DNA of 15,310 nt from an uncultured archaeon. GTDB taxonomy: Archaea; Thermoplasmatota; Penumbrarchaeia; JASLWR01. The stretch spans positions 1 through 15,310 of the forward strand of contig CAYSHM010000037.1 in assembly GCA_964430885.1 (NCBI GenBank), given 5' to 3'. Below are positions 321-15,054 of the stretch, in pieces; position 1 is the first letter of the stretch, and each line of letters starts with the position of its first letter. A program made the translations under genes and the position numbers. Under the pieces are notes generated by a model. It was not told the origin of the DNA, searched no databases, and saw only the letters and a program-made list of their open reading frames with translations.

Positions 321-3300
321 ATGAGGAGTGAGAGCAGAGTATTCTTTACAATTTGGATGTCCTTTGTCCTTTTAGGGACTTTTTTTGTAAGTGTGGATTT
401 AAATTTTTTAGGTGATTTCAATCCTGTGACTACAGGTAATGCAGCAACCATCATAGTTGATGATGACCCAGGTCAGGATTATACAACAATTCAGAGTGCA
501 GTTAATAATGCCGATGATGGCGATACGATTGAAATATATCCTGGAGATTATTACGAGAGTGTTTCAATATCTGGAAATAATCTAAATATTATCGGTTCGG
601 GGATTGATCTGACCACCGTTGATTCCAGCGGTGTGATCACTTTCTATATCTCCGGTGACAATAATGTTATATCAAACCTACATGCGACAGGAGGATTCAG
701 CGGGTTCTTTTTCGATTTCGCTATCAACAACACGATATCCGGATGCAAAGTTACTGGACATGCAGATGCAGGGGTTTACTTCGATGACTCACAGAACAAT
801 ACGGTAATAAACTGCAATCTATCCGACAATCTTGTAGGTGCTACTTTCCAGCATTCCAGCAAGAACAATACTTTGATTTATAGTGAAATCAATGAGAATG
901 ATTATAATGCGATTACAATGAAAGGGTTCGGAAATAATAGTATTCTAGCTAACAATATTATGGAAAACAATGATCTTGGAGGTGCACAGAATTATCCAAC
1001 CATATGGATCGAGTCCCATAATAATACAATTTCAAAGAATTATATATATGACCAATTGGCAACAGGTATATTTGTCTCTGAAGCCAGGAACAATTTGATA
1101 GCTTTCAATGATGTAGGACTGAACCTCCGAGGATTTACCGTAACAGATGGCAGTACTCTCAATAAGATAGTCAATAATACTATATTCTCAAATTATTTCA
1201 ATGGAGTAGAACTGAAGGAATCAAGCTCAAATAATACCCTAGCCGGCAACAGTTTCTATGATAATAATTTCCTGGGAGGTAATGATTATCCCGCAGTTTG
1301 GGCTGATACAGCTAACAATTCCATGATAGATAACCAAATAGACGCAGGAGGTTACACCGGAATATTTATCAGGGATACTTCAAATAATTATTTGGATAAC
1401 AACACTGTATCGAATTCCATTCACGGTATTTATTTCTTCAATACCTTCGATATGCATCTGTCCAATAATACATGCGTCCATGCTTCATTGGATGGAGTAT
1501 TTGTGGAGGATTCGGAAAACATCACACTTGAAAATAATTTTTGCCATTTCAACAACCGTTACGGAATTGAATTGATCAATACACCAAATAATAAGATCAG
1601 TAGGAATAATCTCTCTTATAACTATATGGATACTTATTGGGGTGAGGTCAGGGGAACAGGTTTTGAGGATGATAATGATGAAGGCTGGGTTCACGGAGGT
1701 GCCCAAGACACATGGGAGAGAGGAACACCTTCCTTCGGACCCAATGGCGCCAACAGCGGTTCTAATGCCTGGGGTACTGACCTGAACAGTTATTATGAAC
1801 CAAATTCCGATTGTTCCCTTTATATGCCGGGTTTTTATGCAGAGGATCATTCAGTTCTGCAGTTCTATCACTGGTATTCAATGGAGAACGGCTGGGATAC
1901 AGGCAAAGTGGAATTTAGTCAGGACGGAGGGATAACCTGGGGCCTACTAGTAGCTTATACTGGGTCTTCCAACGGCTGGCAGGAAGTGAACATTCCTTTG
2001 GATGATTATCCTGGTGATGTAATTATAAGGTTCAGATTCACTACCGACGGTAATGTGGAGCTCGATGGGTGGTTTATTGATGACCTTAAGATATTGAACA
2101 GTGGTCTTCAGGATTTTGATAGTTCAGGAGATGACGGCTGGACACACTCCGGAACTGGCGACATGTGGGAGCATGGTGTTCCTTCACAGGTCCCAGGTGC
2201 CCACAGCGGTGATAGAACATGGGCCACCAACCTGAACGATAAATACGACAATGATACCGAATGTTCATTATATTCTCCCGAGATCAGTATCACAGGAGAT
2301 GAATCACTGGTGTTCTGGCACTGGTATGAGATCGAAGAGGGTTGGGACCGTGCTTATCTGGAGATAACGGATAATGGAGGGGGAGACTGGGATACCTTGA
2401 ACTGGTACGATGATAATTCTGACGGTTGGCTGAGAGAGGAGGTTGCTCTAGATGGATACACCGGGAATGTACAAATCAGGTTCAGGTTCACATCTGACGG
2501 GTCTGTTACCTTCCGAGGCTGGTACATCGATGATGTATTTCTTCTTGGCGGTGGAGGGATGAAGATCTTTAACAGCAGCATTAACGAGATAATATCGAAC
2601 AGAATCATGCATTCCAGCGGTAATGGAATATTCATGAATGCAACCCACACAAACCTTCTTTACGATAATTACGCAAATTACAACAGAGACGATGGAGTAC
2701 ATCTAATGAATTCCTTCAGGACCACTGTAAATACAAGTACATGTGAAAATAACTTGAATAACGGAATAGAAGTAATAAATTCAATGAACACCACCTTGGG
2801 GAATAACACCCTGGTCGGCAATATCAATGGATTGGTACTGGCTGCCGGTTCTCACAGGGCAGTTGTTACGGGAAACCTGATAGAGGACAATCTGGACATG
2901 GGTCATTATCAGCAAAGATCCTCTAGCGCTGTCATATCCGGGAATACTGTGACGGATAATATCAATATGGGTATCTATATCGATACATCTCACCAGAATC
3001 ATATCAGCAGCAATACTGTCACATTCAATGATAACGGCCTTGAACTCTACATTTCTGACGAGAACACCATAGACCGAAATGTTTTCTCAGAGAACTGGGG
3101 GAATGGAATTCAAATGCAGTTCTCCAGTTTCAACAATATCACCAACAACGAAATCAATACCAACTGGGATAATGGTGTCTTTGTTAATTATTCCAATTCC
3201 AACAATTTAATTGATAATATCATTCAGGATAACTGGTGGGACGGGATTCTGATGGATTATTCCGAATATAACAGTTTTATTGGCAATAGTGTTGATTTGA

Positions 3301-6300
3301 ACTGGGATGACGGATTCCAGGCCAACAATTCCAATTTCATAAACATTCTGAACAGTACATTCCTGAGCAACTGGTATAATGGTCTTGTAATCGATAATTC
3401 TTATGGGTACAATATCATCAACAATAACATATCCCTGAACAATGACGGGATTCACAGCTATTATGCCGATTATTTGTACATCATCAATAACACTTTCATG
3501 GATAACTGGGATGACGGAATCAGTCTGAATTATTCGTGGTATGATGTAATATCTGGGAACCTCATCAGCGGAAATGGATATGGTCTTTTCCTGAATTATC
3601 GTTCCGCATATAATTGGATAGATAATAATACCGTGACCGGAAATGTCTACGGGATGCTGGTATTAAAAGAATGCTGGACCAGCATTATTGAGAACAATAC
3701 GATAACAGCCAATGGTATGGGTATTTACCTGGCTGATGATATTGATTTCTTTACCATTAGGTTCAATCATCTCCTCTACAACCAGTATTACGGTGTGGTT
3801 ATAGCGGATAATGAGTCAGAAGGTAATCTGATACATCATAATAATTTTATTGGGAACAACGGCAGCAGCTATCAGGCCTATGACGACGGAATTGGAACCA
3901 TTTGGGATAACGGAGCCGAGGGCAATTTCTGGTCTAATTATACCGCTCTTTATCCTCAGGCAACTCATAATGGTGTAGTATGGGATATTCCATACAAGCC
4001 AACAGGCATTTCCTTGAGCGCAGACCGGTATCCTTTGGTATATTGTGCCCCCGGTCTTGATGAACAGCTTCCGGGAGTGTTGTCCGACAACACACCTATC
4101 CAGGCTACTACCGGGGATCCCTTCAGATTCTCAGTTGAGCTGGGTGATGATCTCGGGATCGTATATGCCAACATCCTTTATTCCTTTGACGGTGTGACTT
4201 TCTTAAATGAGTCCATGCTCATTTCACAGAATGGGGAATGGTACTATGATATTATGGTTCCGAGTGATGCATTGGACCTTTATTACATGTTCTATATGAT
4301 CGATTTCGGAAGGAATCAGGTTACAACGTCTGAGGTCAGCATTCCCGTTGTTGACAATGACGATCCTGTTTTCATTGTAGACAATACGCCATCAACTGCA
4401 TATACCGGAGATGTGATCACCTTCTCGTTAACTGCTGGAGATAATATACTCGTAACAAGTGTCAGCGTTTTCTATTCCTATGATAGTACTAATTATTACG
4501 AATTGGTATTGACTCCTGGAGATGCGGGTCTATGGAGCGGGGACCATCAGATAAATGATCAAGCTGCCCAAATGGATTACTATTTCAGAATAACCGATGG
4601 CTTGAACGAAATAAATACCAATGTTTCCGTGATCACCATCACCGACAATGACCTCCCGAGCATCGAGGGTGACGAGACCGATGAGATAGCCTACACGGGG
4701 GATTACTTCGGATTCAAATTGAACATAGAAGACAATATTGGTGTGGATAGTGTTTGGGTCAACTATACATTTAATAGTTTGGATATTTTGACCCTTGAGC
4801 TTAACTCTTCCAGGGCCGATACCTTTAGGGGTTCATTGCTGATCCCAGATTCTGCACAGTGGCTGGAATACTATCCGGTGGTTTTGGACCTAACTGGAAA
4901 TATGCTAATTGGTAACCTCACCAATATTTCTGTAGCCGACAATGATATACCCCTAGCTGATGCAGGTGACGATCTGGAACTGGATCAGGGCACCTCCTAC
5001 ATACTGAACGCAGGAAACAGTACTGATAATGTTGGTATAGTCAATTATTCCTGGTATATAGTGCTTGAAGGGGATGATTGGGAATTGACCGGAGAACAAG
5101 CAGAATTTGTCTTTGAACTGAATGGCGATTATTTTATAACTCTTGTAGTTAGCGATGAGGCTGGAAATTTAGCATCAGACAGCATCAATGTAACTGTGCT
5201 TGACCGTATTGAACCCACGGCAGCTGCAGGGGATGATTTAATAATTGATCAGTATGAAACGGTAGAACTCAACGGCAATGGCAGCATTGACAATGTTGGG
5301 ATAAAAACATTTACCTGGGATTTCATTTATCAGGGCCGGGAAGTCACTCTAGAGGGCATGAAAACCACCTTTGTTTTCAATATGCCCGGAGATTACTTGA
5401 TCACTTTGACCGTTACAGATGAAATGGGTTATTCGGACAATGATACATTGCTTCTGATAGTGAGAGATATCGAATCGCCGATTGCCAATGCTGGTTCGGA
5501 TATTATTATTGAGAAAGGCACCACTCTTTCATTAGACGGAAGCAACTCCACTGACAACATGGGGATCAAAACTTACAGGTGGTATTTTGAATATGATGGA
5601 TCTGAGGAAATACTTAATGGTGAAATCAATTCATTCATATTTGATATTGCCGGAAATTATAATATTACTCTGAATGTATCCGACGGAGCTTTTAATTTCG
5701 GTGAGGATACCATCCGTGTAAAGGTCATTGACCCGTCTTCTTCTGATGATGATACCACAGGAGATGATGATAATGTTCCTGATGGTAATGAACAGGACGA
5801 CGACAGCAAGAGCTGGCTTGATAGTTCATGGGCGATTATCCTGATAATTATAATAATAATAATCCTGATCAGTCTCTTCCTTTTCCTGGTAATATTCAGG
5901 CGTAGAAAGAAAGAGGATAAAGAAGAAGAAATCGAGACCGATCTGGGATATATCGGTGAGGATGGAACCGGCGATGATGACGAAGTGGAAGTGGATATTA
6001 CAGGGGACTTGATCGAACCTGAAAGGGAGCAACTTGAAGAGAAGTTCACTGAACTTGAGAATCTTTATTATTCCTGTCAGGAGATGGGTATGGATCTTTC
6101 TGAACATGAGAGAGATTACCAGAGCATCAATGACAGGATTGGAGGAGAAGCGTCTGATCCCAAGCTTTATAAGGATATGCTGGCATTGATGAATGTACTT
6201 GACGTGAAGAAGAACGAAATGGAAGAAGGGGCCAAAGAAGGGTCAAAAAAGATTCACAATGAGATTGACGGATTGTTCATAGAAGCTTCCAAGGCAGGTG

Positions 6301-6794
6301 TTGACATTTCATATCATCAAACAGATTACGAGTCTGCCATATCATACTTCAAACAGGGCGATTACGTAAGATCAAAAGCACTCTTCAGCAATGTTCTGAA
6401 TCACCTGAAAAGAGACATGGGGAAAAACAATGACGGGGATATGGATACTTCATTGGAAAACCGACAGAGTGATCTGCATGTTGGAACAGAAGAAGGTATT
6501 GATGTCGGGGAATCCTATGAAGGTCAATTTGCATTACCTCAGGGTGATGAGATGAAATCTAAAGAGACCGAAGAAGATATCGATGACGACATTGGTGATA
6601 TTGATGGAATTTACGACGAAGATATTTCGGATGAGGACCTTAATATGGAGGATCTTGATGAGCTCTTCGGCGACCTTGATGATCTTGAAGACTTAGAAGA
6701 ACTTGAAGAGTTGGATGAAGTTGACGATTCAGATAAATCAGAAGAATTGGGCGACCTCGATGAAATCGAAATAGTCAATGAAAATGAAGAGTGA
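321..6794 (+). CDS. Large membrane-anchored cell-surface protein (NosD/CASH-type parallel beta-helix, 2 MAM-like jelly-roll domains, 3 Ig-like repeats, 3 PKD domains, C-terminal TM, acidic tail)
   Basis: 2157-aa ORF. Hydrophobic N-terminal signal (VFFTIWMSFVLLGTFFV) then ATIIVDDD..DYTTIQSAVNNADDGDTIEIYPGDYYE, a typical beta-helix cap. Many GI.l..S.NN.I..N.I..N rungs; closing motif GNFWSNY...DIPY...DRYPL. Three P.A.AG.D...L.G..S.DN.GI..Y.W PKD repeats. TM WAIILIIIIIIILISLFLFLVIF followed by RRRKK. Confidence 0.9.
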   Translation: MRSESRVFFTIWMSFVLLGTFFVSVDLNFLGDFNPVTTGNAATIIVDDDPGQDYTTIQSAVNNADDGDTIEIYPGDYYESVSISGNNLNIIGSGIDLTTVDSSGVITFYISGDNNVISNLHATGGFSGFFFDFAINNTISGCKVTGHADAGVYFDDSQNNTVINCNLSDNLVGATFQHSSKNNTLIYSEINENDYNAITMKGFGNNSILANNIMENNDLGGAQNYPTIWIESHNNTISKNYIYDQLATGIFVSEARNNLIAFNDVGLNLRGFTVTDGSTLNKIVNNTIFSNYFNGVELKESSSNNTLAGNSFYDNNFLGGNDYPAVWADTANNSMIDNQIDAGGYTGIFIRDTSNNYLDNNTVSNSIHGIYFFNTFDMHLSNNTCVHASLDGVFVEDSENITLENNFCHFNNRYGIELINTPNNKISRNNLSYNYMDTYWGEVRGTGFEDDNDEGWVHGGAQDTWERGTPSFGPNGANSGSNAWGTDLNSYYEPNSDCSLYMPGFYAEDHSVLQFYHWYSMENGWDTGKVEFSQDGGITWGLLVAYTGSSNGWQEVNIPLDDYPGDVIIRFRFTTDGNVELDGWFIDDLKILNSGLQDFDSSGDDGWTHSGTGDMWEHGVPSQVPGAHSGDRTWATNLNDKYDNDTECSLYSPEISITGDESLVFWHWYEIEEGWDRAYLEITDNGGGDWDTLNWYDDNSDGWLREEVALDGYTGNVQIRFRFTSDGSVTFRGWYIDDVFLLGGGGMKIFNSSINEIISNRIMHSSGNGIFMNATHTNLLYDNYANYNRDDGVHLMNSFRTTVNTSTCENNLNNGIEVINSMNTTLGNNTLVGNINGLVLAAGSHRAVVTGNLIEDNLDMGHYQQRSSSAVISGNTVTDNINMGIYIDTSHQNHISSNTVTFNDNGLELYISDENTIDRNVFSENWGNGIQMQFSSFNNITNNEINTNWDNGVFVNYSNSNNLIDNIIQDNWWDGILMDYSEYNSFIGNSVDLNWDDGFQANNSNFINILNSTFLSNWYNGLVIDNSYGYNIINNNISLNNDGIHSYYADYLYIINNTFMDNWDDGISLNYSWYDVISGNLISGNGYGLFLNYRSAYNWIDNNTVTGNVYGMLVLKECWTSIIENNTITANGMGIYLADDIDFFTIRFNHLLYNQYYGVVIADNESEGNLIHHNNFIGNNGSSYQAYDDGIGTIWDNGAEGNFWSNYTALYPQATHNGVVWDIPYKPTGISLSADRYPLVYCAPGLDEQLPGVLSDNTPIQATTGDPFRFSVELGDDLGIVYANILYSFDGVTFLNESMLISQNGEWYYDIMVPSDALDLYYMFYMIDFGRNQVTTSEVSIPVVDNDDPVFIVDNTPSTAYTGDVITFSLTAGDNILVTSVSVFYSYDSTNYYELVLTPGDAGLWSGDHQINDQAAQMDYYFRITDGLNEINTNVSVITITDNDLPSIEGDETDEIAYTGDYFGFKLNIEDNIGVDSVWVNYTFNSLDILTLELNSSRADTFRGSLLIPDSAQWLEYYPVVLDLTGNMLIGNLTNISVADNDIPLADAGDDLELDQGTSYILNAGNSTDNVGIVNYSWYIVLEGDDWELTGEQAEFVFELNGDYFITLVVSDEAGNLASDSINVTVLDRIEPTAAAGDDLIIDQYETVELNGNGSIDNVGIKTFTWDFIYQGREVTLEGMKTTFVFNMPGDYLITLTVTDEMGYSDNDTLLLIVRDIESPIANAGSDIIIEKGTTLSLDGSNSTDNMGIKTYRWYFEYDGSEEILNGEINSFIFDIAGNYNITLNVSDGAFNFGEDTIRVKVIDPSSSDDDTTGDDDNVPDGNEQDDDSKSWLDSSWAIILIIIIIIILISLFLFLVIFRRRKKEDKEEEIETDLGYIGEDGTGDDDEVEVDITGDLIEPEREQLEEKFTELENLYYSCQEMGMDLSEHERDYQSINDRIGGEASDPKLYKDMLALMNVLDVKKNEMEEGAKEGSKKIHNEIDGLFIEASKAGVDISYHQTDYESAISYFKQGDYVRSKALFSNVLNHLKRDMGKNNDGDMDTSLENRQSDLHVGTEEGIDVGESYEGQFALPQGDEMKSKETEEDIDDDIGDIDGIYDEDISDEDLNMEDLDELFGDLDDLEDLEELEELDEVDDSDKSEELGDLDEIEIVNENEE
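1656..2546 (+). repeat. Two tandem ~147-aa MAM-like/immune-inhibitor-A-like jelly-roll domains inside the beta-helix
   Basis: Units ~1656-2096 and ~2106-2546 share GW.H.G..D.WE.G.PS..P.GA.SG...W.T.LN..Y.....CSLY.P...L.F.HWY..E.GWD......DGG..W......S.GW....LD.Y.G.V.IRFRFT.DG.V...GW.IDD. Confidence 0.8.
4056..4937 (+). repeat. Three ~98-aa Ig-like stalk repeats
   Basis: Repeated D...P....D.T...A.TGD...F.....D..G/L....V.Y(S/T)(F/Y) pattern: DNTPIQATTGDPFRF, DNTPSTAYTGDVITF, DETDEIAYTGDYFGF. Confidence 0.7.
4938..5732 (+). repeat. Three PKD domains
   Basis: PLADAGDD..LNAGNSTDNVGIVNYSW, PTAAAGDD..LNGNGSIDNVGIKTFTW, PIANAGSD..LDGSNSTDNMGIKTYRW, each ending G.Y.ITL.V.D. Confidence 0.85.
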
Positions 6795-6944: not shown

Positions 6945-7712
6945 ATGTTTTTTCAACCATTATTCAAAAAACCCATACTCAATGTCGAGAATGGGGACCA
7001 CCGCATCCTATTATTCGGCGATCTGCATATTGGCCGTGAGTTTCGCGACCGGAAAAAGGGATTGATCCTAAGATACGACATTCAGAACTTCGTTTCTGAC
7101 CTTGTAAATGTTCTAGATGAAATTCAGGCGGATATAATTGTTCTTCTCGGGGATATTAAGGATGATGTGTATAGAAGCGAAAGTGTAACTAACAACCACT
7201 TGATATTGTTATTCAGTCAAATTCTCGCAAAATGCCCAAGACTAGTATTGGTAAAGGGAAATCACGATGGATTGATCGAAAAAGACCTTCCTGAAAATAT
7301 TGAATACATTGGACCGACTGGAGGCGTGGTGGAGGGTATTGGTGTTTTTCATGGGCATGCTTGGCCGTCAAAAGAAGTTTTGTGCTCGAAACTCGTTGTA
7401 ACAGCACACAATCATACCACCTTTGCTTCAGAGCTTAATAGTCGATCTAGTCATTATTATAGATGCTGGATAAAAGGAAAATTGGATTTTCAGAAAGTTG
7501 GTGAATATTACGCCGGCATGAAAAAAGAAACTTTAATAAAATCCGATTTTATTGTCCTTCCCTCATTCAGAAGATTTGGACAGGGTGTAGTGATTAATGG
7601 GGATGATGATTTCATAGGACCAGTACTCAAGAACGGTTTATTAGATCTTGAGAAATCCCATATTTTTCTTCTGGACGGAACAGAACTAGGGCGTCTTTCA
7701 GTCTATAGATGA
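6945..7712 (+). CDS. Calcineurin-like metallophosphoesterase (archaeal COG1407/ICC-like family)
   Basis: 255 aa with ordered metal-binding motifs GDLHIG, LLGDIK, KGNHD, HGH, AHNH and C-terminal IVLPSF...FLLDGT.LG, typical of archaeal members. Confidence 0.85.
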   Translation: MFFQPLFKKPILNVENGDHRILLFGDLHIGREFRDRKKGLILRYDIQNFVSDLVNVLDEIQADIIVLLGDIKDDVYRSESVTNNHLILLFSQILAKCPRLVLVKGNHDGLIEKDLPENIEYIGPTGGVVEGIGVFHGHAWPSKEVLCSKLVVTAHNHTTFASELNSRSSHYYRCWIKGKLDFQKVGEYYAGMKKETLIKSDFIVLPSFRRFGQGVVINGDDDFIGPVLKNGLLDLEKSHIFLLDGTELGRLSVYR

Positions 7713-7719
7713 TATAAGT

Positions 7720-7764
7720 AAAAAAATATAAAAATAAAAAATGGCCGGGAATTCAACCCAGCCA
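7720..7764 (-). terminator. Hairpin plus T-tract terminator for the 2417-aa gene
   Basis: Minus strand TGGCTGGG-TTGAATT-CCCGGCCA (8-bp stem, one G:U) followed by long T-rich tract, ~36 nt after the stop, in the convergent intergenic gap. Confidence 0.75.
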
Positions 7765-7800
7765 ATAACGTCTTCCAGTCAATCATTCAAAATAGCGTAT

Positions 7801-10800
7801 TCACTGCTCTATCTGCACCTCAAAGAGCTCGTTGTCCTTGGTCTTCAGTGCGAAGTAGTATCCAGCTCTGGCCTCACCGGGATCGGGAGTACCGTCGTAG
7901 TTCTCATGGTCCTCGCTCTTGATGATGAACCGGTCACCCGTGGACAGATATCCGTCATGGTCGCCGTCATGGAAGGACACGATTGTCTCGTTGTCGATGG
8001 ACTTGCCGTAGATGGCTGTCACCTTGTGCTGACCCATGCTTTTATCGACCTTGTTCCCGTCCATTAATGAGAACTCCAGGTCCTCAACCGAGAATTCTTT
8101 ATCTTTCACGTTCTCGATGATGAGCTGGTAGTCGTTCTGAAGTGTTGGGCTTTCCCAAGCGGTATCAACATACTCGATATCGTTGCTCTTCTGCGTATCC
8201 ACAAGTCCCGATACCCAGAGCCAGAGAACACCGGCAAGGACGATGGTTATGGCAACCATGAGAATGATGGCAATGACAGGTGAAACACCGTCCTTGTCTT
8301 TCTTTCTCTTCCGTCCCTTTTCATCGCCCCAGGAATAGAGGCTGGCTATGACCGCTCCGGCAAGGAGGGCCAGAACCATTATTGTCATTCCTGGAGCAAA
8401 TGACGGAGTCTCGGATGCAGGTGGAGCAGCCACAGCGTGGAGCTCTATGAGTGTGGAATCATCTTCTTCGTTCCACTGGAAATCACCCATGTCAGCTCCG
8501 CCTGCAATATCGACGATCTCGACCTTGAGGTAGTTAAGGTTGTCAGAGTTGACATTGTCGTAGTTCAGAGCACCTGCCATGCTTTCAAATGGTATAAGAG
8601 CGCTGTATTCTCGCACCCCTTCCTGATTGGAATGCAGATAGAGAAGTCTGAAGGTACCATTGGGTGCCCCGCTGGTGTGAATAACATGTCCGGGTCCTTC
8701 TTCATTGCCATCCAAATTGACCTCATGATAAACTGTGCATTTCACGAGTAGCTGAAGATTGTCTGGGAAAGAATCCTCAGGGGTCTTGTAATGAACAGGC
8801 ACACGCAGTTCATAAGGTGTATCCAATAAGAATTCTGTGGCACTCAGCTCTTCCCTGACTAGCCAAACATTCAGACGGTTGTAGACCCTGACGGGAATCT
8901 CGAGAGTTACTTCACCATCAAGGAATTCATCTACATCAACGGCAGTAACGATCACATTACCATTGAGGAATGAATACTCTCCTTCCAGAACTCCATGCGA
9001 ATCCTCTAAACTGAAGAAATCCACAGCCTGGAATACATTATCGTCCATCATTCCAATTATTTCATCAGCATCCCATTCGGTGATCTCAAGGTCCGTTACC
9101 GGATTACCCCATTCATCAAAACCTACCACATCGAAACTCTGACTTCCACTGACTGGTATCAACAGCCTCCCGTCTGCGGCATTCTGGACATCTAGTATCG
9201 AAGGATCGGGGATTGGCGTCAATTCTGCCAAGGGTCCTGCTCTAACTTCCATTTCCAGCTTACCATTTATAGCATGGTTGATTCCTGATTTCATAGAAAT
9301 ATCCAGCGCATCAGTTGCCTGGTAGAATATGAATTCGGTCAACTGATCCGCCGGCAGCACTTCGCCATCAACCATTTCCATAATGATGTTGGAAGGTGAG
9401 CTTTGCCACGGTTGAGGTTCAAGGATACCGGTAGCCCCGGAATTATGTTCCACTATTATCGGTGCGTCATAGGATGAAGAGACGTGGTCGCCCTGATCCA
9501 CAGCCAGAACATCCAGATAAAGGGTTTCTCCGGCATAGATATAGTTATCAGGTCTCGGAGCAACCCCCATCTCATCCCAATCGGGTGTAACGATCAAATG
9601 ATGAACCGGTCCTGCATCAACCACCAAGGATACATCAGCACTTAAACCTGCGATGGTTTCGAAGTGGATAATGGTATCCCCGTCACCCATGTATGTCCAC
9701 GGTGTGATAAAGAAGGTATGCAGAGCTCTATCCGCTGGCGTGAACTCGTAGTATAACCATCCATCATGGGATCCACCGTCGTCCTCTATTTCTACCTCTT
9801 CAGAGAAATCTACTTCACCTGCATCTAACCGGATGTACATCTTACCCGTCCAGTCCACAGCTTCATTTCCGTAATCATCCTGCACAGCAATGGTAAGAAT
9901 ATCAGTCATACTGTACATATATGAATCCAGTGGGGTTACGATTGCTGTAGAAGCAGGACCTGATGTCAGGGTGATTGGTAGAACAAAGGTATCCCCTGTT
10001 CCTCTGGCAGCTCCATGGGTTACTGTAATTGTACCAGTGTCACCAGGTTCTCCACCATTGATATTCAGGATCTTCTGGTGACTGGAAGCAGTGTCCATGA
10101 GTTCATAGCTGTCAACTGTGGGTAGATCTACCTGCCAGCCATGGTATTGCTGGGCCGGCATTTCTCCAGCGGGATCCAGATCATCATATGCCACAAGGGT
10201 GATGAGGTTCTCTTCACCTGGAACTTGTCCATGATTATTAGCTATGAAAGTAGAATCCTCACTGAACTCAGCATACGAGAATTCCTGAATTCTTAGGTAA
10301 GGAGATTCGAGATCCATATCGACTATCTCATTATCCCATGAGATATATTGGAGATTGAAATCGCCGATTTCTCCCGCAAAACCCACGGGAGAAGAAATGG
10401 TGAAAACTATCTCGAACTCATCGCCCATGAACACCGCATCGTCCTCAGGATATTCATCTGCAGAAGACCAGGTGATCTGGGTTATTCCGGGATCATTGTC
10501 CAATACAATTCCATCGGCTCTATCGTAGGTGAACCTAACCTCATTGGCTACGGGATCACCGCCTCCAAGGTAGGTGAACTTGACATTTCCGTGACCATTG
10601 TTTGTTCCCTCGAGATTTTCCTGGTTCTCTCCATCGTTGTAGGAACCTCCTCCTCCTCCGCCAGTGCTGGACCAATCAACAGTTCCGGTTCCACCGGAAT
10701 AACCACCGCCCCCAGCTCCACCACCGCAGTTACCATGGGTTCCTCCCCCACCGCCGAATCCGCCCCAGGCACCGCAATAGTTCTGGTTTCCTCCGACTCC

Positions 10801-13800
10801 ACCCTGCATATATCCTTGACCTGCACTTCCATAAGAATTCTGACCACTGCTGAAGAAACCACCGCCACCACTTCCTGAGTTGCCTGTTTGAATCTGGCCA
10901 CCTTGTCCGTCACATCTCGTCATAATACCTGTGGAGCAAGTTGTTGCGGATCCGGGATATCCGTTTCCTCCTCCATATGCATTGGATCCTCCACCGCCTC
11001 CTGCGATAAGCAGGGGTGTGTTATCATTCCTAACAACATAGGAACCGCCTCCAGCTCCCGGACATGTACAGGCATTGCCACCCATCTGTCCGACAAGCAC
11101 ATTAATTATATCTCCAGCTTCAAATTCGAACTCTCCCAGGATACTGGCCCCGTTGCCACCTGTTTGATTGCCGTTACCGGCTTTAGCTCCTAGAGCGTGT
11201 ACTTGGTATATTCCTGCATCAGGTACCATCCACTGCTGTATTCCGTTTCCAATACGAGTAACAATTCCATCCAAGGCTGAACCGGAATAGGCGGAATTGA
11301 TCTGAGCCTGACTTGGGCCGTATCTTCCGGTTTGTCCGCAGTTAGTAAATTCGTAAACCACAGGATCAGCTCGTGTTTCGCCTTCAGCTGGTGCACCGCC
11401 CAATCCATCAATACTGATTGTAACTGTTGCTACGTCCGGTTCACCCTGCCCTTCAGCATAAATTCTGAATGGGTCCTCAGGATCTGTTTCCATCTCAACA
11501 CTTAGGTACGGCACCTCAAAGATGAACTCTACTTCGGGGTTTGCCCTGAGTGTGATCTCATCCCATAGTATGGTCTCATCAGGGAAAGCACCGCTCCCGT
11601 ACTGCATGAATCTAATATACAGGTCTTCCTGAGAATCAACACTGTTTACAGGCAGTGCTGAAAGGAGATCGAGATCCTCATGCATACTCCAGCCATCTGG
11701 ACTGACTGGTGACCAGACCTTGTACCAGTTCATTCCATTGGTACTGACTGCTACACCGTCATATGTCATTTCATCGCCATTGCTGAAGACAGGGGGCATG
11801 GGATCGCAGTTACCGTAAATGGCTGCTGCGAAATCAAGTGTCAGGTCAGTTACATCCTCTTCACCAGCATCAAGACCTATATGAAGAGTTAGTTCATTGA
11901 GATTAGTATCTCTTACCGGTACCGGATTGTCCATCACCCAGCAATAAGGTCCCCTGTCCTCCTCTTCATAGGCATCAAATCCTGGGTCTTCCAAATCTTG
12001 ATACTGGGTTATGGTTACTTGTCCATGTCCTGAATTTGTATTTGCTGTATTTGACTGATTATCGCCGATATTATAGGAGCCCGCCCCTCCTCCGGGCCTA
12101 TGGTTGGAGTGATCATAGGACCCACCGCCACCACCGGAATAACCACCGCCGCCACCGCCGCCGCAGTTCCAGGATCGAGTGGCACCGCCCCCGCCAAACC
12201 CACCGTCAGAATTTCCATAACCGCCAGCTCCACCGTTGAGGAAACTGTCCCCGCCGCTTCCTGCCCATAGCGTACCGCTTCCGCCAGCATTGCTGCCATT
12301 CACACATCCATTTCCTCCAGCTCCACCAACACCACCGTACGATTGATTGCGCAGGTCCCCTCCGTCTCCGCAGAAACCAGCACCGCCAGCTCCTGCACCC
12401 TGACTACCTCCACCTCCGCCGCCGCCGTTATCTCCTCCCTTACCGCTATAATACTGATTTCCTGGCGGGGTACCACCAGATGTGGTTATCCTGCCGCCTT
12501 CTGCAGTACCTCCTCCGCAGCAGGCACCGCCTCCTCCTCCAGCAATGAGGAGTTTGGTATCATCAGACATAATGATATATGTGCCTCCTCCGCCTCCAGA
12601 AGCGTTTCCGCCGGTTCCACCTTGCTGTCCAACCAGTACCTTGATGACGTCCCCTTCATTCAGGTCAAATTCACCGCTCATAAAGGCACCGTTGCCGCCC
12701 TGGTAATTGCTGTAATTGCCACCTTTAGCTCCCCAAGCTTCTATTGTGTAGGTGGCAGTTGAAGGTATGGTGAATTCCTGAATTCCCTGCTGATTCACTG
12801 TAATGTTCCCCTCAAGATTTGATCCAATATAAGCTGTGTTCACATTAGCCTGTGTGGGACCGTATCTTCCAGTTGACCCGCAGTTTGTGAAATTATATTC
12901 GCCTACGACTATTACACCAGCTTCTGTGATGGCTCTCTCATTTCTTGCGCTCTCCAGTTCACTATCTCTTCTCCAAGCAGGTCCGAATTCTGAAGCATCG
13001 GCACCGAAAAGAGCTTCGGAAAATGTTTCATGATAAAATCTAGCAAGCGCTACCGGTGCTACAGCGATTATCACCTTTCCATGGTCTTCATTGGCTCCAG
13101 TTTGGTTATCTTGGTTGTCACCGTCGTTATAGGATCCTCCCCCCCCTCCATTACCCCAAGTGGCATCATGATAACCACCAGCTCCACCGGAATACCCGCC
13201 GCCTCCTCCGCCGCCTCCTGAATTACCATGGGTTCCACCGCCCCCTCCAAATCCGCCTCTGGCGCAGTAACTTGTATTTCCTCCATTACCGCCATTTGTA
13301 AAAGAAACACCTGGTGAACCATAAGAACCATTACCGCCATTTCCAGTAAGACCACCTCCACCGCAGGCCCCACCGCCTGTATCACCCTGCCCTCCTCCTC
13401 CGTTTGATCCGCCGTTCCTTCTATTAGTACTCTGACCATTTTCTTCTGTTGTGCCATGCTGATATGATTGAATGGAACCTTCCCATTGACCCCCACCACC
13501 GCCACCGGCAATGATCAGAGGCGTGTTGTCATTCAAAGTGACATATGATCCGCCACCCCCACCGCCGGAACCATAGCAGCTTTCACCTTGCTGGCCTACT
13601 AAAATCTTAAGTACGGTGCCTTCTTCAAGATAAAAATCGCCCTGCATATTGGCGCCTTTACCACCGTTGTCATAATTATCATCATGGCCAGCTTCCGCAC
13701 CGTAAGCTGTAATAGTGTATGTATTGGTTGAAGGAACTGTCCATCGCTGGATTCCATTATTTACCCATGTGACCTGACCCGCAAGATTGGTTCCTGAATA

Positions 13801-15054
13801 CTCTGAATTGATCTGTCCTTGATTAGGTCCGTACTGTCCGGTCCTTCCGCAATTTGTGAATTCATATGATTCGCCGGTTCCTTCCTCATATTCCATTCCG
13901 TATTCAGAACTGCCGGCTCCTTCAACAAAAGTGATCTTTACATATCCATGGTTATTATTTACACCTGCTTCAGTGGTACCATTTTCAACCCCATCTATGT
14001 AGGACGATCCCCCGCCACCTGATCCTCCCCAACCGCTTCCGTGTCTCTGGGATGACCCCGCACCGCCTCCGTACCATCCACCACCGCCTCCTGCTGTTCC
14101 GCAGTGGTAGTCTCCGCCTGCGCCGTCACCGCCTTTTCCGAAAGTCCCGGCTTCACCAGTGGAATACATATTGCCTCCTCCAGCACCACCTGCGTTCTGA
14201 GTTGCACCTTTTCCATTCCAGTTACGGCCGCCACTTCCATCAAGACCGTTCAAACCGCCTCCGCTGCCTCCATTAGATGTGGAACATCCGGCAGCCCCAC
14301 CACCCCCTGCACCGACGATTATTCTTGAAGGATTCTGGGCAGTTCCGATTTGCTGGGATAATCTGACGTCGGAAGCCCCACCACCGCTGGCCCTGTCCCT
14401 GCCTCCCCAACCATCTCCTCCACCATTGAAACCGCCATAGGTTATACCGCAGCAGTAATTTGGTCCAGTAAGCCCTCTTTGGCCCACAGCTATATAGATT
14501 GTATCGCCTTTGGTAAATTCATAATCTCCCTCGGCCCTACCGCCACTGCCAGGGGTTCCGGAATCATCTCCACCAATAGCGCCGACAGCTTCAATGTGAT
14601 AAATACCGTTCACAGGAATATCCCATTCCTGTAATCCGCTGACAGACGTTACTGAGCCATCCAGATTTGATCCTGAATAAGCAGAATTAATTTGACCCTG
14701 ATTAGGACCGTTCTGCCCGGTGGCACCGCAGTTAGTGAAGGAAAAAACCTCTCCTTCATCCACTCCTGCTCTGGTTCTCTCTTTTTGTTCGGACTCTGTT
14801 TTTATTTCAGAACCAATAGTATACAGATTAGAACCTATAGCTCCTATACTTCCGTCAGAAAATTTAGCAGCCATACCATAGCTCATGGTCTGGGCATCTA
14901 CCGTTTTTTCGTTCTGGTGGGGAAGGAAAACCACTTCCTCTACCGTTACATTCTCCGTGTTATCGCTTTCAAAAAGCGTACCTACCAGCAGTGCTAATCC
15001 TGTGAGGATCAAGGCACTGATTGCAAGTATCAATATCAATTTTTTCATGTTCAT
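7801..15054 (-). CDS. Giant surface protein with four ALK/LTK-like glycine-rich domains, a PGF-CTERM-like TM and a C-terminal archaeal type IV pilin
   Basis: 2417-aa ORF. N-terminal signal MNMKKLILILAISALILTGLALLVG with AGGAG 8 nt upstream. Four FTNCG.TG..GP.Q...HG.V modules. TPSFAPGMTIMVLALLAGAVIASLYSW-GDEKGRKRKKDKDG-VSPVIAIILMVAITIVLAGVLWLWV near the C-terminus. Confidence 0.9.
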   Translation of the reverse strand: MNMKKLILILAISALILTGLALLVGTLFESDNTENVTVEEVVFLPHQNEKTVDAQTMSYGMAAKFSDGSIGAIGSNLYTIGSEIKTESEQKERTRAGVDEGEVFSFTNCGATGQNGPNQGQINSAYSGSNLDGSVTSVSGLQEWDIPVNGIYHIEAVGAIGGDDSGTPGSGGRAEGDYEFTKGDTIYIAVGQRGLTGPNYCCGITYGGFNGGGDGWGGRDRASGGGASDVRLSQQIGTAQNPSRIIVGAGGGGAAGCSTSNGGSGGGLNGLDGSGGRNWNGKGATQNAGGAGGGNMYSTGEAGTFGKGGDGAGGDYHCGTAGGGGGWYGGGAGSSQRHGSGWGGSGGGGSSYIDGVENGTTEAGVNNNHGYVKITFVEGAGSSEYGMEYEEGTGESYEFTNCGRTGQYGPNQGQINSEYSGTNLAGQVTWVNNGIQRWTVPSTNTYTITAYGAEAGHDDNYDNGGKGANMQGDFYLEEGTVLKILVGQQGESCYGSGGGGGGSYVTLNDNTPLIIAGGGGGGQWEGSIQSYQHGTTEENGQSTNRRNGGSNGGGGQGDTGGGACGGGGLTGNGGNGSYGSPGVSFTNGGNGGNTSYCARGGFGGGGGTHGNSGGGGGGGGYSGGAGGYHDATWGNGGGGGSYNDGDNQDNQTGANEDHGKVIIAVAPVALARFYHETFSEALFGADASEFGPAWRRDSELESARNERAITEAGVIVVGEYNFTNCGSTGRYGPTQANVNTAYIGSNLEGNITVNQQGIQEFTIPSTATYTIEAWGAKGGNYSNYQGGNGAFMSGEFDLNEGDVIKVLVGQQGGTGGNASGGGGGTYIIMSDDTKLLIAGGGGGACCGGGTAEGGRITTSGGTPPGNQYYSGKGGDNGGGGGGGSQGAGAGGAGFCGDGGDLRNQSYGGVGGAGGNGCVNGSNAGGSGTLWAGSGGDSFLNGGAGGYGNSDGGFGGGGATRSWNCGGGGGGGYSGGGGGSYDHSNHRPGGGAGSYNIGDNQSNTANTNSGHGQVTITQYQDLEDPGFDAYEEEDRGPYCWVMDNPVPVRDTNLNELTLHIGLDAGEEDVTDLTLDFAAAIYGNCDPMPPVFSNGDEMTYDGVAVSTNGMNWYKVWSPVSPDGWSMHEDLDLLSALPVNSVDSQEDLYIRFMQYGSGAFPDETILWDEITLRANPEVEFIFEVPYLSVEMETDPEDPFRIYAEGQGEPDVATVTISIDGLGGAPAEGETRADPVVYEFTNCGQTGRYGPSQAQINSAYSGSALDGIVTRIGNGIQQWMVPDAGIYQVHALGAKAGNGNQTGGNGASILGEFEFEAGDIINVLVGQMGGNACTCPGAGGGSYVVRNDNTPLLIAGGGGGSNAYGGGNGYPGSATTCSTGIMTRCDGQGGQIQTGNSGSGGGGFFSSGQNSYGSAGQGYMQGGVGGNQNYCGAWGGFGGGGGTHGNCGGGAGGGGYSGGTGTVDWSSTGGGGGGSYNDGENQENLEGTNNGHGNVKFTYLGGGDPVANEVRFTYDRADGIVLDNDPGITQITWSSADEYPEDDAVFMGDEFEIVFTISSPVGFAGEIGDFNLQYISWDNEIVDMDLESPYLRIQEFSYAEFSEDSTFIANNHGQVPGEENLITLVAYDDLDPAGEMPAQQYHGWQVDLPTVDSYELMDTASSHQKILNINGGEPGDTGTITVTHGAARGTGDTFVLPITLTSGPASTAIVTPLDSYMYSMTDILTIAVQDDYGNEAVDWTGKMYIRLDAGEVDFSEEVEIEDDGGSHDGWLYYEFTPADRALHTFFITPWTYMGDGDTIIHFETIAGLSADVSLVVDAGPVHHLIVTPDWDEMGVAPRPDNYIYAGETLYLDVLAVDQGDHVSSSYDAPIIVEHNSGATGILEPQPWQSSPSNIIMEMVDGEVLPADQLTEFIFYQATDALDISMKSGINHAINGKLEMEVRAGPLAELTPIPDPSILDVQNAADGRLLIPVSGSQSFDVVGFDEWGNPVTDLEITEWDADEIIGMMDDNVFQAVDFFSLEDSHGVLEGEYSFLNGNVIVTAVDVDEFLDGEVTLEIPVRVYNRLNVWLVREELSATEFLLDTPYELRVPVHYKTPEDSFPDNLQLLVKCTVYHEVNLDGNEEGPGHVIHTSGAPNGTFRLLYLHSNQEGVREYSALIPFESMAGALNYDNVNSDNLNYLKVEIVDIAGGADMGDFQWNEEDDSTLIELHAVAAPPASETPSFAPGMTIMVLALLAGAVIASLYSWGDEKGRKRKKDKDGVSPVIAIILMVAITIVLAGVLWLWVSGLVDTQKSNDIEYVDTAWESPTLQNDYQLIIENVKDKEFSVEDLEFSLMDGNKVDKSMGQHKVTAIYGKSIDNETIVSFHDGDHDGYLSTGDRFIIKSEDHENYDGTPDPGEARAGYYFALKTKDNELFEVQIEQ
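7804..8286 (-). other. Archaeal type IV pilin domain (Pilin_N/DUF1628-like N-terminus), predicted mature length 161 aa, fused at the C-terminus of the 2417-aa protein
   Basis: G|VSPVIAIILMVAITIVLAGVLWLWVSGL matches the euryarchaeal pilin H-domain consensus ([22 protein letters not shown]). The downstream D.DHDGYLSTGDRF motif resembles the globular domains of such pilins. Confidence 0.85.
10567..14748 (-). repeat. Four glycine-rich modules (~264-299 aa) resembling the ALK/LTK TNF-like + glycine-rich supradomain (PF12810-like)
   Basis: Modules at ~13924-14748, ~13060-13869, ~12004-12900 and ~10567-11358. Each starts FTNCG.TG..GP.Q...N..Y.G, has G.Q....P....Y...A.GA..G, VGQ.G, GGGG runs and GGGG(Y/W), and ends HG.V. 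Confidence 0.85.

Follow-up and report, generated by a model that had tools for sequence, protein, structure and literature searches.

A conserved C-terminal cassette placing a prepilin behind a sorting-signal-like helix in giant surface proteins of Thermoplasmatota: a candidate adhesin-pilin precursor

The stretch of archaeal DNA analyzed here (15,310 nucleotides, hereafter the window) encodes a 2417-aa surface protein, P0001. Within one reading frame, this protein continues from a sorting-signal-like membrane helix into an entire type IV prepilin. We propose, with a probability of roughly 55%, that the helix belongs to an archaeosortase-type tripartite signal and that the precursor is processed into an adhesin and a pilin. 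The proposal draws on the observed anatomy of the gene, its conservation, the strong selection acting on its pilin module, and the enzyme genes found in the genome, from which we infer the topology, both cleavages, and the assembly of the pilin. The features of the locus are as follows.

Positions 7801-15054, minus strand: whole gene of P0001, a 2417-aa surface protein (stop codon 7801-7803 included)
Positions 14971-15054, minus strand: N-terminal signal or signal-anchor, aa 1-28, MNMKK followed by a hydrophobic stretch (sequence; hydropathy segment aa 6-24)
Positions 13927-14610, minus strand: ALK/LTK-type glycine-rich domain, best Pfam stretch aa 149-376 (PF12810, 81.7 bits)
Positions 8398-8406, minus strand: P-S-F signature, P2217-S-F2219, inside a conserved TPSFAP (sequence; P[S/G/A]F.P kept in homologs)
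Positions 8329-8397, minus strand: TM1, the first C-terminal membrane helix, A2220-W2242 (hydropathy)
Positions 8287-8328, minus strand: charged loop GDEKGRKRKKDKDG, aa 2243-2256 (sequence, DNA)
Positions 8212-8286, minus strand: pilin N-terminal hydrophobic helix VSPVIAIILMVAITIVLAGVLWLWV, aa 2257-2281 (Pilin_N and TIGR02537; profile match to 8fj5, 8gi2, and 9myg)
Positions 7804-8211, minus strand: globular pilin domain, aa 2282-2417 (common to stand-alone 150-180-aa pilins)
Positions 7742-7764, minus strand: terminator-like hairpin followed by a T-run, 37 bases past the stop codon (consensus scan only)

Translation of the window DNA from 7801 to 15054 on the minus strand gives one uninterrupted frame of 2417 aa with zero stops. 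The single open frame and the residue numbers given in the preliminary description (P2217-F2219, G2256, and V2257) are exact; its start coordinate, 8410, misses the reading frame by a single base, since the codon boundary falls at 8409. A Kyte-Doolittle scan identified three hydrophobic segments in P0001 (aa 6-24, 2219-2237, and 2260-2278). Four repeats led by FTNCGxTGxxGPxQ can be read in the protein, and the PF12810 stretch at aa 149-376 is the first of these. Between TM1 and the pilin lies the loop G2243-DEKGRKRKKDKD-G2256, which contains 7 K/R and 4 D/E; it is basic, as had been claimed, and fits a cytoplasmic location. Because the loop is basic, TM1 would be a stop-transfer helix running from outside to inside. 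The predicted class III cleavage site follows G2256, after which come V2257-SPVIAIILMVAITIVLAGVLWLWV and 136 more residues, for a total of 161 aa. The layout of a class III signal is present, with a charged leader, a small residue at -1, and a long helix (KKDKDG↓VSPVIAIILMVAITIVLAGVLWLWV). Matches to the two models that had been suggested for a scan span aa 2254-2328 of P0001 and both exceed the cut-off: PF07790 (Pilin_N) gives 33.9 bits at aa 2255-2328 and 38.9 bits on a 202-aa fragment (cut-off 25.2), and NCBIfam TIGR02537 (arch_flag_Nterm) gives 36-40.2 bits (cut-off 20). The signal is therefore internal rather than N-terminal: a 2200-aa ectodomain and a membrane helix come before it, and it begins near residue 2243 of the 2417.

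An arrangement of this kind could in principle be an assembly or frameshift artefact that joins two genes, or the pilin could be made from an internal start codon, and we consider both scarcely credible. With about ten copies in the genome, the cassette acts as a repeat at which short-read contigs break, and one copy ends at a contig end; in Logan contigs, positions 7880-8224 are fragmented, with a summed depth of 50-295 versus 11-18 in the flanks. Against an artefact, the frame is continuous in 10 paralogs that differ by ~10% in DNA, in 38 loci of other assemblies, and in one metagenome contig. In Logan contigs from two DNA runs, which may be the window's own source sample, positions 8224-9500 (class III site, loop, TM1, and PSF) are covered with 0 differences and 0 gaps, and no indels are listed within 7500-9500. 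A single 6829-base contig spans 8224-9500 without a difference. The continuity across 8280-8420 on which the earlier proposal depended is therefore upheld by these contigs and by dozens of continuous homologs, and an artefact is ruled out by the paralogs, the 38 foreign loci, the metagenome locus, and the bridging contig. Internal initiation is rejected because the DNA from TM1 to the cleavage site contains no in-frame ATG, GTG, or TTG; the only nearby methionines are M2223 and M2226, and initiation at these would keep TM1 on the product. In two metatranscriptome runs from the same study, short contigs match 7785-8058, 8323-8675, and 9057-9355, a weak hint that the gene is transcribed.

Of 80 related loci in named GTDB genomes, 38, mostly from Ca. 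Poseidoniaceae/Poseidoniales (Marine Group II MAGs), have the fused layout, as do 29 of 150 listed database representatives, for which a match from query residue 13 or earlier and a site at least 37 aa inside the protein were demanded. One more fused locus lies on a metagenome contig. Cleavage sites in the lists of database representatives, of the 38 loci, and of related genomes were collected with a regular expression demanding G, A, or S at -1, which other residues at that position would escape. Dozens of homologs are thus fused, and the two parts are not always split between genes. The ectodomains that precede the cassette include ALK/LTK glycine-rich, Kelch, BNR, and MAM types, among others. 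Judged by these comparisons, the last ~200 residues are a conserved and portable C-terminal cassette carried on unrelated ectodomains, and the adhesin-pilin fusion is conserved across two classes, from the window's own genome to Marine Group II.

A portable and highly conserved C-terminal module on unrelated ectodomains also resembles an anchoring or docking module. It is conceivable, if rather unlikely, that the cassette is never cut, in which case TM1 and the pilin helix would form a membrane hairpin and the pilin-like domain would remain outside as a conserved base. Through this base the adhesin would be docked to some partner, for example the pilus platform, an S-layer, or other copies, and the class III features would be inherited and unused. 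The conservation of the cleavage site argues otherwise. In alignment A1, all 13 rows have G or A at position -1 and V42-S-P-V-I46 is invariant, and in the listed rows [DN][DE]x[AG] precedes VSPVI in fused and stand-alone forms alike, whereas outside this neighbourhood the length, sequence, and even the charge of the loop vary freely. The D at -2, which had been raised as a caveat, is no longer a concern, since stand-alone pilins of the lineage also have [DN][DE]x[AG] ahead of VSPVI; one in the window's own genome reads KNDEA↓VSPVIA. The pilin domain, moreover, alternates between stand-alone and fused forms at similar divergence, which likewise speaks against an uncleaved anchor. It occurs in stand-alone pilins with an N-terminal signal such as P0013 (177 aa, 57% identity, E 3e-50), and genome G002 carries it in three tandem stand-alone pilin genes. 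A metagenome scan with P0013 returned two loci, and the one translated is the fused metagenome locus already mentioned. A split arrangement, in which a PSF-CTERM adhesin accompanies a separate pilin gene, was not seen around the three tandem G002 pilins or beside the two PSF-ending CARDB proteins of the window's own genome.

Some observations count against the processing model. The Marine Group II cassettes in the listed rows have a loop that is net acidic after an initial RR. In addition, no pilus genes were found next to the cassette gene in this window or at the Marine Group II locus L059, where the neighbours are housekeeping genes only. The lack of adjoining pilus genes also favours an uncleaved anchor, as does the consideration that a tethered leader may hinder the peptidase.

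The window's own genome contains 14 Pilin_N matches, 10 of which sit 161-163 aa from the end of open frames of 1498-2424 aa and constitute a ten-member paralog family; PSF is present in P0001 and its nine paralogs. Across the 161 codons of the pilin module, the 36 pairs formed by nine complete paralogs show 1603 synonymous versus 92 non-synonymous codon differences (dN 0.009, dS 0.68, dN/dS 0.013), and dN/dS is 0.128 in the PSF-TM1-loop segment and 0.145-0.186 upstream. The pilin part is under extreme constraint and nearly invariant among the paralogs, as would be expected of copies that all supply a single polymer. The dS of 0.68 and the 1603 synonymous differences rule out recent gene conversion as the source of this near-identity; this dS is below the 1.5-2.7 found upstream, and some past homogenisation of the pilin parts may therefore have occurred. 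Strong purifying selection would also fit the conserved binding partner of an uncleaved anchor, but a plain anchor requires neither a conserved P[SGA]F nor a near-invariant 136-aa domain.

Processing into a free pilin would depend on a prepilin peptidase. PF01478 had no match in the window's own genome at E<=0.001 (best 14.8 bits, in a frame with a stop), and the regular expression G.GD[VIFLAM]K found nothing credible there. The peptidase was located via orthologues of weak matches in relatives, together with PF06847. The candidate at C5:80400-81530 scores 49.5 bits with Arc_PepC_II (cut-off 29.9) and matches a relative's weak PF01478 protein (phmmer, 1e-124); by these profile and homology matches it is a divergent archaeal A24 prepilin peptidase. 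The same genome holds 5 T2SSE and 7 T2SSF matches (pilus ATPase/PilC), so that the co-occurrence of peptidase and pilus genes anticipated for the fusion is found, and Arc_PepC_II and T2SSF occur together in 5 of 5 other cassette genomes tested. Contig C6 of the window's own genome encodes a 1718-aa protein adjoining PilC and ATPase genes that contains a unit of helix, basic loop, and KNG↓VSPVIG (Pilin_N, 78 bits) and a second internal unit of helix, loop, and QKA↓VSSVVG. Its middle unit is related to giant pilins whose signals are of the ordinary N-terminal kind. The sequence of this pilus-operon protein lends independent support to internal class III units.

The part upstream of the prepilin also looks like a signal in its own right. 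The P[S/G/A]F motif, TM1, and the basic tail resemble an archaeosortase-type tripartite signal: the order TPSFAP, 21-23 hydrophobic residues, and GDEKGRKRKKDKDG is present in P0001, and a signal of this design recurs in the 38 fused loci. The motif in P0001 is PSF rather than PGF, and homologs in G007 and G005 have TPGFDP and TPAFVP, respectively. The signal is not at the extreme C-terminus, as 161 residues come after it; a cut at G2256 would make it terminal and thereby a canonical sortase substrate. Two CARDB proteins of the same genome end in TPSF(E/A)P, a helix, and a basic tail, and ~17 classical SPGF tails are present as well. ArtA is encoded there (TIGR04125, 124.9 bits, cut-off 75), along with two further archaeosortase-family genes, one ArtC-like and a third member on C8 that adjoins a gene for a 1327-aa protein without a PxF signal. 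Archaeosortase-family matches number 2-6 per cassette genome (2 each in 5 of 5 other cassette genomes tested) and 0-1 in 24 f7 genomes, and G006, G008, G010, and G014 have 2-3 such matches and no clear cassette. The agreement between these counts and the cassette is thus loose, and it is confounded by kinship. The NCBIfam CTERM models did not match the cassette, and they say nothing about it because two classical SPGF tails of the same genome, used as positive controls, were missed too, except for one sub-threshold Heimdall-CTERM match. A search of four Marine Group II genomes and G003 for a PSFAP-coding DNA pattern gave counts near those of a reversed-pattern control. In the Marine Group II genome G031, four of the five extra Ser-coding pattern sites were translated and proved to be out-of-frame chance matches, and no further PSFAP-helix protein appeared. 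These results therefore provide no evidence for a wider PSF-CTERM set in Marine Group II.

Given the tripartite signal with its P[S/G/A]F motif and the archaeosortase genes, cleavage at PSF could lipid-anchor the adhesin while the remnant of TM1, loop, and pilin is either degraded or left as a small membrane protein with two helices, so that the pilin is never freed. A precedent is HVO_0405 of Haloferax volcanii, a fusion protein whose central PGF tripartite signal is, in the parts of the reports available, described as cut by ArtA to yield N- and C-terminal fragments (PMC7157517, PMC6098224). We nevertheless think it improbable that processing stops at this point, since the downstream part of HVO_0405 is, in those same parts, a strain-specific accident, whereas the pilin is the most conserved part here. 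The intact class III site and the peptidase gene also argue that the remnant is itself a substrate.

In the preferred model, in which both products are released, the giant ectodomain would be exported by Sec until TM1 halts transfer, leaving the basic loop in the cytoplasm. The pilin helix would then re-insert with its N-terminus inside and its C-terminus outside, the normal topology of a prepilin. The A24 prepilin peptidase would cut after G2256 and free the 161-aa pilin, which, being the same or nearly so from all ten paralogs, could enter a type IV pilus or pilus-like assembly. The loop GDEKGRKRKKDKDG would have two roles, closing the tripartite signal as its basic tail and opening the class III signal as its leader, and the adhesin would be left ending in PSFAP, a helix, and a basic tail, a canonical tripartite C-terminal signal. 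Because PSF, helix, and basic tail resemble a sorting signal, the adhesin may be processed again by an archaeosortase that replaces this signal by a lipid anchor. A broader proposal is more tentative: throughout marine Thermoplasmatota, including Marine Group II, such a dual-protease cassette might yield a lipid-anchored giant adhesin and the pilin of a common filament, with export and pilus supply coupled one to one, and internal class III signals behind stop-transfer helices might be a general pilin-making route. The C6 protein, with its two internal units, supports this idea.

The polyprotein reading of the preliminary description is supported in part, in that each of its sequence-level predictions put to the test held; the ten-member paralog family, the portability of the cassette, its conservation in Marine Group II, and the sorting-signal-like helix had been missed. 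To our knowledge, the leaders of characterised A24 peptidase substrates are free and N-terminal, an N-terminal position is taken to be part of the definition of class III signal peptides, and tools that list archaeal pilins examine N-termini only; cassette pilins would therefore go uncounted. If cut as proposed, P0001 would be a first in two respects, as a prepilin peptidase substrate whose leader is tethered to the membrane and as a natural precursor that matures through a prepilin peptidase as well as an archaeosortase, and adhesin export would be tied to pilus subunit supply. What is new here is a PSF helix and basic tail that look like an archaeosortase signal ahead of a prepilin. The literature searched, including the available parts of PMC4858521, PMC6461757, PMC7157517, and PMC6098224, describes neither class III signals at internal or C-terminal positions nor fusions of an adhesin with a pilin. 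Marine Group II archaea are described as the most abundant archaea in the plankton of surface oceans, and their surface adhesion is discussed, in the part of that report available, via archaeal flagella operon, thrombospondin, and flotillin genes (PMC6461757). The cassette in many Marine Group II genomes offers concrete, testable candidates for the attachment structures of this group.

Among known systems, stand-alone Pilin_N pilins (PDB 8fj5; Natrinema PilA2, 8gi2) share with the cassette the helix [DE]x[AG]↓VSPVI(G/A)xILMVAITVxLA, and the cassette profile matches the solved pilins 8fj5 (2.8e-13), 8gi2 (2.2e-12), and 9myg. Thermoplasmatota pilins of 150-180 aa also have the globular domain of the cassette. 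However, their class III signal is N-terminal on a small precursor, whereas in the cassette a stop-transfer helix precedes it and it begins near residue 2243 of 2417. HVO_0405 resembles the cassette in that its polypeptide continues into another protein part after a tripartite sorting signal. It differs, as far as the available portion of the report describes it, in being a strain-specific fusion to a NifU-domain gene (PMC6098224) with a PGF motif, whereas the cassette fusion is conserved across two classes and carries PSF; the downstream part of the cassette is, in addition, a membrane-inserted prepilin with a protease site of its own. The PGF-CTERM substrates of archaeosortase A, such as the H. 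volcanii S-layer glycoprotein, likewise have a motif, a helix, and a basic cluster ending a large secreted protein, but the cassette signal would become C-terminal only once the pilin is removed, and its middle residue is S (G or A in homologs). Some modular type IV pilins carry grafted adhesive modules, bacterial examples being PilB/PilC of Streptococcus sanguinis. Like the giant archaeal pilins with N-terminal signals, these combine a pilin moiety and a large adhesive part in one polypeptide. In both, the pilin comes first, the module follows, and the product is one protein, so that one helix suffices; in the cassette the order is reversed, an extra helix is therefore needed, and cleavage would separate the two parts.

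The surface protein ends in a whole prepilin read in the same frame. The window is the entire 15.3-kb contig C37 of a 3.13-Mb genome (G000; 44 contigs, 91.6% complete), and the gene and its parts, all on the minus strand, are as follows.

Window 7801-15054, minus strand: surface protein, one open frame of 2417 aa (translation)
N-terminus: signal-like helix (sequence)
Ectodomain, ~2190 residues: four ALK/LTK-type glycine-rich repeats (PF12810, 81.7 bits; repeats by eye)
PSF at aa 2217-2219: TPSFAP motif (sequence)
After PSF, up to W2242: hydrophobic stretch, TM1 (sequence)
aa 2243-2256: loop GDEKGRKRKKDKDG (sequence)
V2257-SPVIAIILMVAITIVLAGVLWLWV, then 136 more residues: pilin start (sequence)

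Because this anatomy matches and both Pilin_N (PF07790) and TIGR02537 exceed their curated cut-offs at aa 2254-2328, the C-terminal string reported in the preliminary description (PSF, helix, loop, class III site, and globular domain) is correct to the residue. A terminator-like hairpin lies 3' of the stop codon. The four glycine-rich repeats (aa ~100-1400) each start with FTNCGxTGxxGPxQ, and PF12810 recognises one of them. The ALK/LTK glycine-rich domain is most familiar from animal receptor kinases.

The fused frame is real, not an artefact, and is a member of a family. Ten of the 14 Pilin_N matches in G000 fall within open frames of 1498-2424 aa, 161-163 aa short of the end: five in tandem on C26, two on C15, and single copies on C2, C37, and C1, the last truncated by the contig end. 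The PSFAP-helix-basic loop-G↓VSPVIA cassette (arrow, predicted cut) is common to all ten, and only three or four pilins in G000 have ordinary N-terminal signals. The preliminary description had left room for a stop or frameshift between helix and pilin; Logan contigs from two DNA runs are continuous over 8224-9500 of the window with zero differences, list no indels in 7500-9500, and are broken up at 7880-8224 at 5-20 times the depth of the flanks, as expected of a ten-copy repeat. These runs may be the window's source sample, and therefore the recurrence of the frame in other assemblies is the stronger argument against an artefact. With this recurrence, the ten copies in G000, and a loop (aa 2243-2256) in which no in-frame start codon was found, an artefact or internal start codon in place of a true fusion is hardly credible.

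The last 202 residues, used as query against 1.84 billion representative proteins, gave 609 matches (E<=0.001). In 29 of the 150 matches listed, the alignment starts at query residue <=13, at a point 37 to 2181 residues into the protein, and therefore takes in PSF and TM1; the remaining listed matches are mostly stand-alone pilins of 150-180 aa, aligned from query residue ~33. Scanning GTDB with one genome per species confirmed 553 loci, and layouts were read for the best 80. Fused layouts account for 38 of these 80, always with (V/T)PSF(A/T)P before the helix, mostly in Ca. Poseidoniaceae/Poseidoniales (Marine Group II, MGII) MAGs with frames of 2300 to >2880 aa; the other 42 are stand-alone pilins from Marine Group III, Methanomassiliicoccales, and other Thermoplasmata. 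L042 and L068 were rejected as fused loci, being false script calls from upstream alternative starts. The window's own class (37 genomes), distinct from that of MGII, holds fused forms in several families (G001, G003, G005, G007). Ectodomains before the cassette are unrelated, glycine-rich, Kelch, BNR, and MAM among them, and no source consulted for homologs gives the fused proteins a name. Three proteins of 195-220 aa from other metagenomes (P0124, P0147, P0151) have one or two membrane helices followed by DDEA↓VSPVIAVILMV, without a PSF motif, and are a further form of non-N-terminal class III signal.

In an alignment of nine fused and four stand-alone proteins, VSPVI, I49, L50, V52, T55, and W65 are invariant and position -1 is G or A in all rows. 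D at -2 had been flagged beforehand as atypical; this caveat falls, since acidic -2/-3 residues are the lineage norm, stand-alone pilins included (KNDEA↓V in G000, NDEQA↓V in many relatives). Outside these positions, both the length and the net charge of the loop vary: it is basic in the window's protein, and in MGII an acidic stretch follows RR. The class III site looks functional, and an uncleaved cassette serving as a two-helix anchor or docking module is rather unlikely.

Selection was estimated by Nei-Gojobori over 36 pairs of the nine complete G000 paralogs, the C1 copy being excluded because of its truncation. The 161-codon pilin part differs by ~10% in DNA with its protein almost unchanged (1603 synonymous vs 92 non-synonymous codon differences; dN 0.009, dS 0.68, ratio 0.013), and dN/dS rises to 0.128 in PSF-TM1-loop and 0.145-0.186 across the 500 upstream codons. 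No other part of the protein is nearly as constrained as the pilin, and all paralogs would yield the same 161-aa product.

A PF01478 profile search did not match the peptidase of the window's class, and a survey by PF01478 (Peptidase_A24) only would score G000 as peptidase-free. The peptidase and a pilus-operon protein are located as follows.

G000:C5:80400-81530, minus strand: prepilin peptidase orthologue, L130 (phmmer 1e-124 to a relative; Arc_PepC_II, PF06847, 49.5 bits)
G000:C6:139987-145143, minus strand: 1718-aa protein, L131, adjoining PilC and a pilus ATPase, with two internal helix-basic loop-class III units

Orthologues of the peptidase in relatives carry the GGADAK motif. G000 has five T2SSE ATPases and seven T2SSF matches, and Arc_PepC_II and T2SSF both occur in all five other cassette genomes tested. 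We place the odds slightly above even (about 0.55) that the ectodomain is exported through Sec, that TM1 would act as a stop-transfer helix leaving the loop cytoplasmic, that the pilin helix would re-insert in normal prepilin topology, and that cleavage after G2256 would free a pilin common to the paralogs. Such a fusion might provide one-to-one pilin supply, co-localisation with the pilus machinery, or pilin insertion coupled to completed export.

L131 runs from a signal through a 420-aa ectodomain, helix, and basic loop to KNG↓VSPVIG at aa 510 (Pilin_N 78 bits), then through an 880-aa ectodomain, helix, and basic loop to QKA↓VSSVVG at aa ~1451 and a 240-aa domain with weak DUF7266 and DUF7289 matches. 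Its middle unit has relatives in G006, G008, and G014, giant pilins that carry an ordinary signal at the N-terminus and are preceded by stop codons; the lineage has therefore joined prepilins behind putative stop-transfer helices more than once. Read in this way, L131 lends independent support to internal class III signals.

Another giant surface protein, of 2157 aa, is encoded at 321-6794 of the window (plus strand). It combines beta-helix/NosD repeats with two MAM-like and three PKD domains, followed by a single membrane helix and a cytoplasmic tail of ~350 aa that is very acidic and coiled-coil-like; neither a pilin cassette nor a PxF signal is present. A 255-aa calcineurin-like phosphoesterase, SbcD-related by weak NCBIfam matches (6945-7712, plus strand), is convergent with the adhesin gene. 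The ORF at 7741-8067 (plus strand), opposite the pilin region, has no family match and is probably not a gene.

PSF-TM1-basic loop also appears to be a second signal, unnamed in the preliminary description, with the motif, helix, and basic cluster that PMC6098224 gives for archaeosortase substrates; a cut at G2256 would leave precisely this kind of tripartite signal at the C-terminus of the adhesin. Homologous cassettes carry canonical TPGFDP (G007) or TPAFVP (G005), and G000 has ~17 classical SPGF tails, ArtA, and two more archaeosortase-family genes. Two paralogous CARDB proteins (557 and 609 aa) may show the unfused form of the sorting signal.

G000:C1:145645-147318, minus strand: CARDB protein L133, ending in a TPSF(E/A)P-helix-basic tail without pilin
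G000:C3:73395-75224, plus strand: CARDB protein L134, with the same type of ending, without pilin

At G000:C4, locus L015 1435-3648 (minus strand), an ArtC-like archaeosortase (82 bits, short of the 100-bit cut-off) is encoded immediately downstream of a VWA protein that ends in DTPEFPW-helix-RRRIKD, which looks like a PEF-CTERM-type pair. The sortase step is less secure than the peptidase step. The motif in the window's protein is PSF, not PGF, which counts against it, and the phyletic link between cassette and archaeosortases is loose. Curated CTERM HMMs do not discriminate here, matching neither the cassette nor, above cut-off, the SPGF control tails of G000, and no other PSFAP-helix proteins were found at four of five extra pattern sites examined in one MGII genome. 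Processing by sortase only is distinctly improbable; given peptidase cleavage, the adhesin has a chance somewhat below even of being cut next by an archaeosortase and lipid-anchored.

A conserved union of adhesin and prepilin, or internal class III signals behind a membrane helix, has no description in the openly available main texts searched. An adhesin with a tripartite signal and a prepilin are each of a known kind. HVO_0405, as described in PMC7157517 and PMC6098224, has a central tripartite signal cut by ArtA, placed as in the cassette, although its gene fusion is described as strain-specific.
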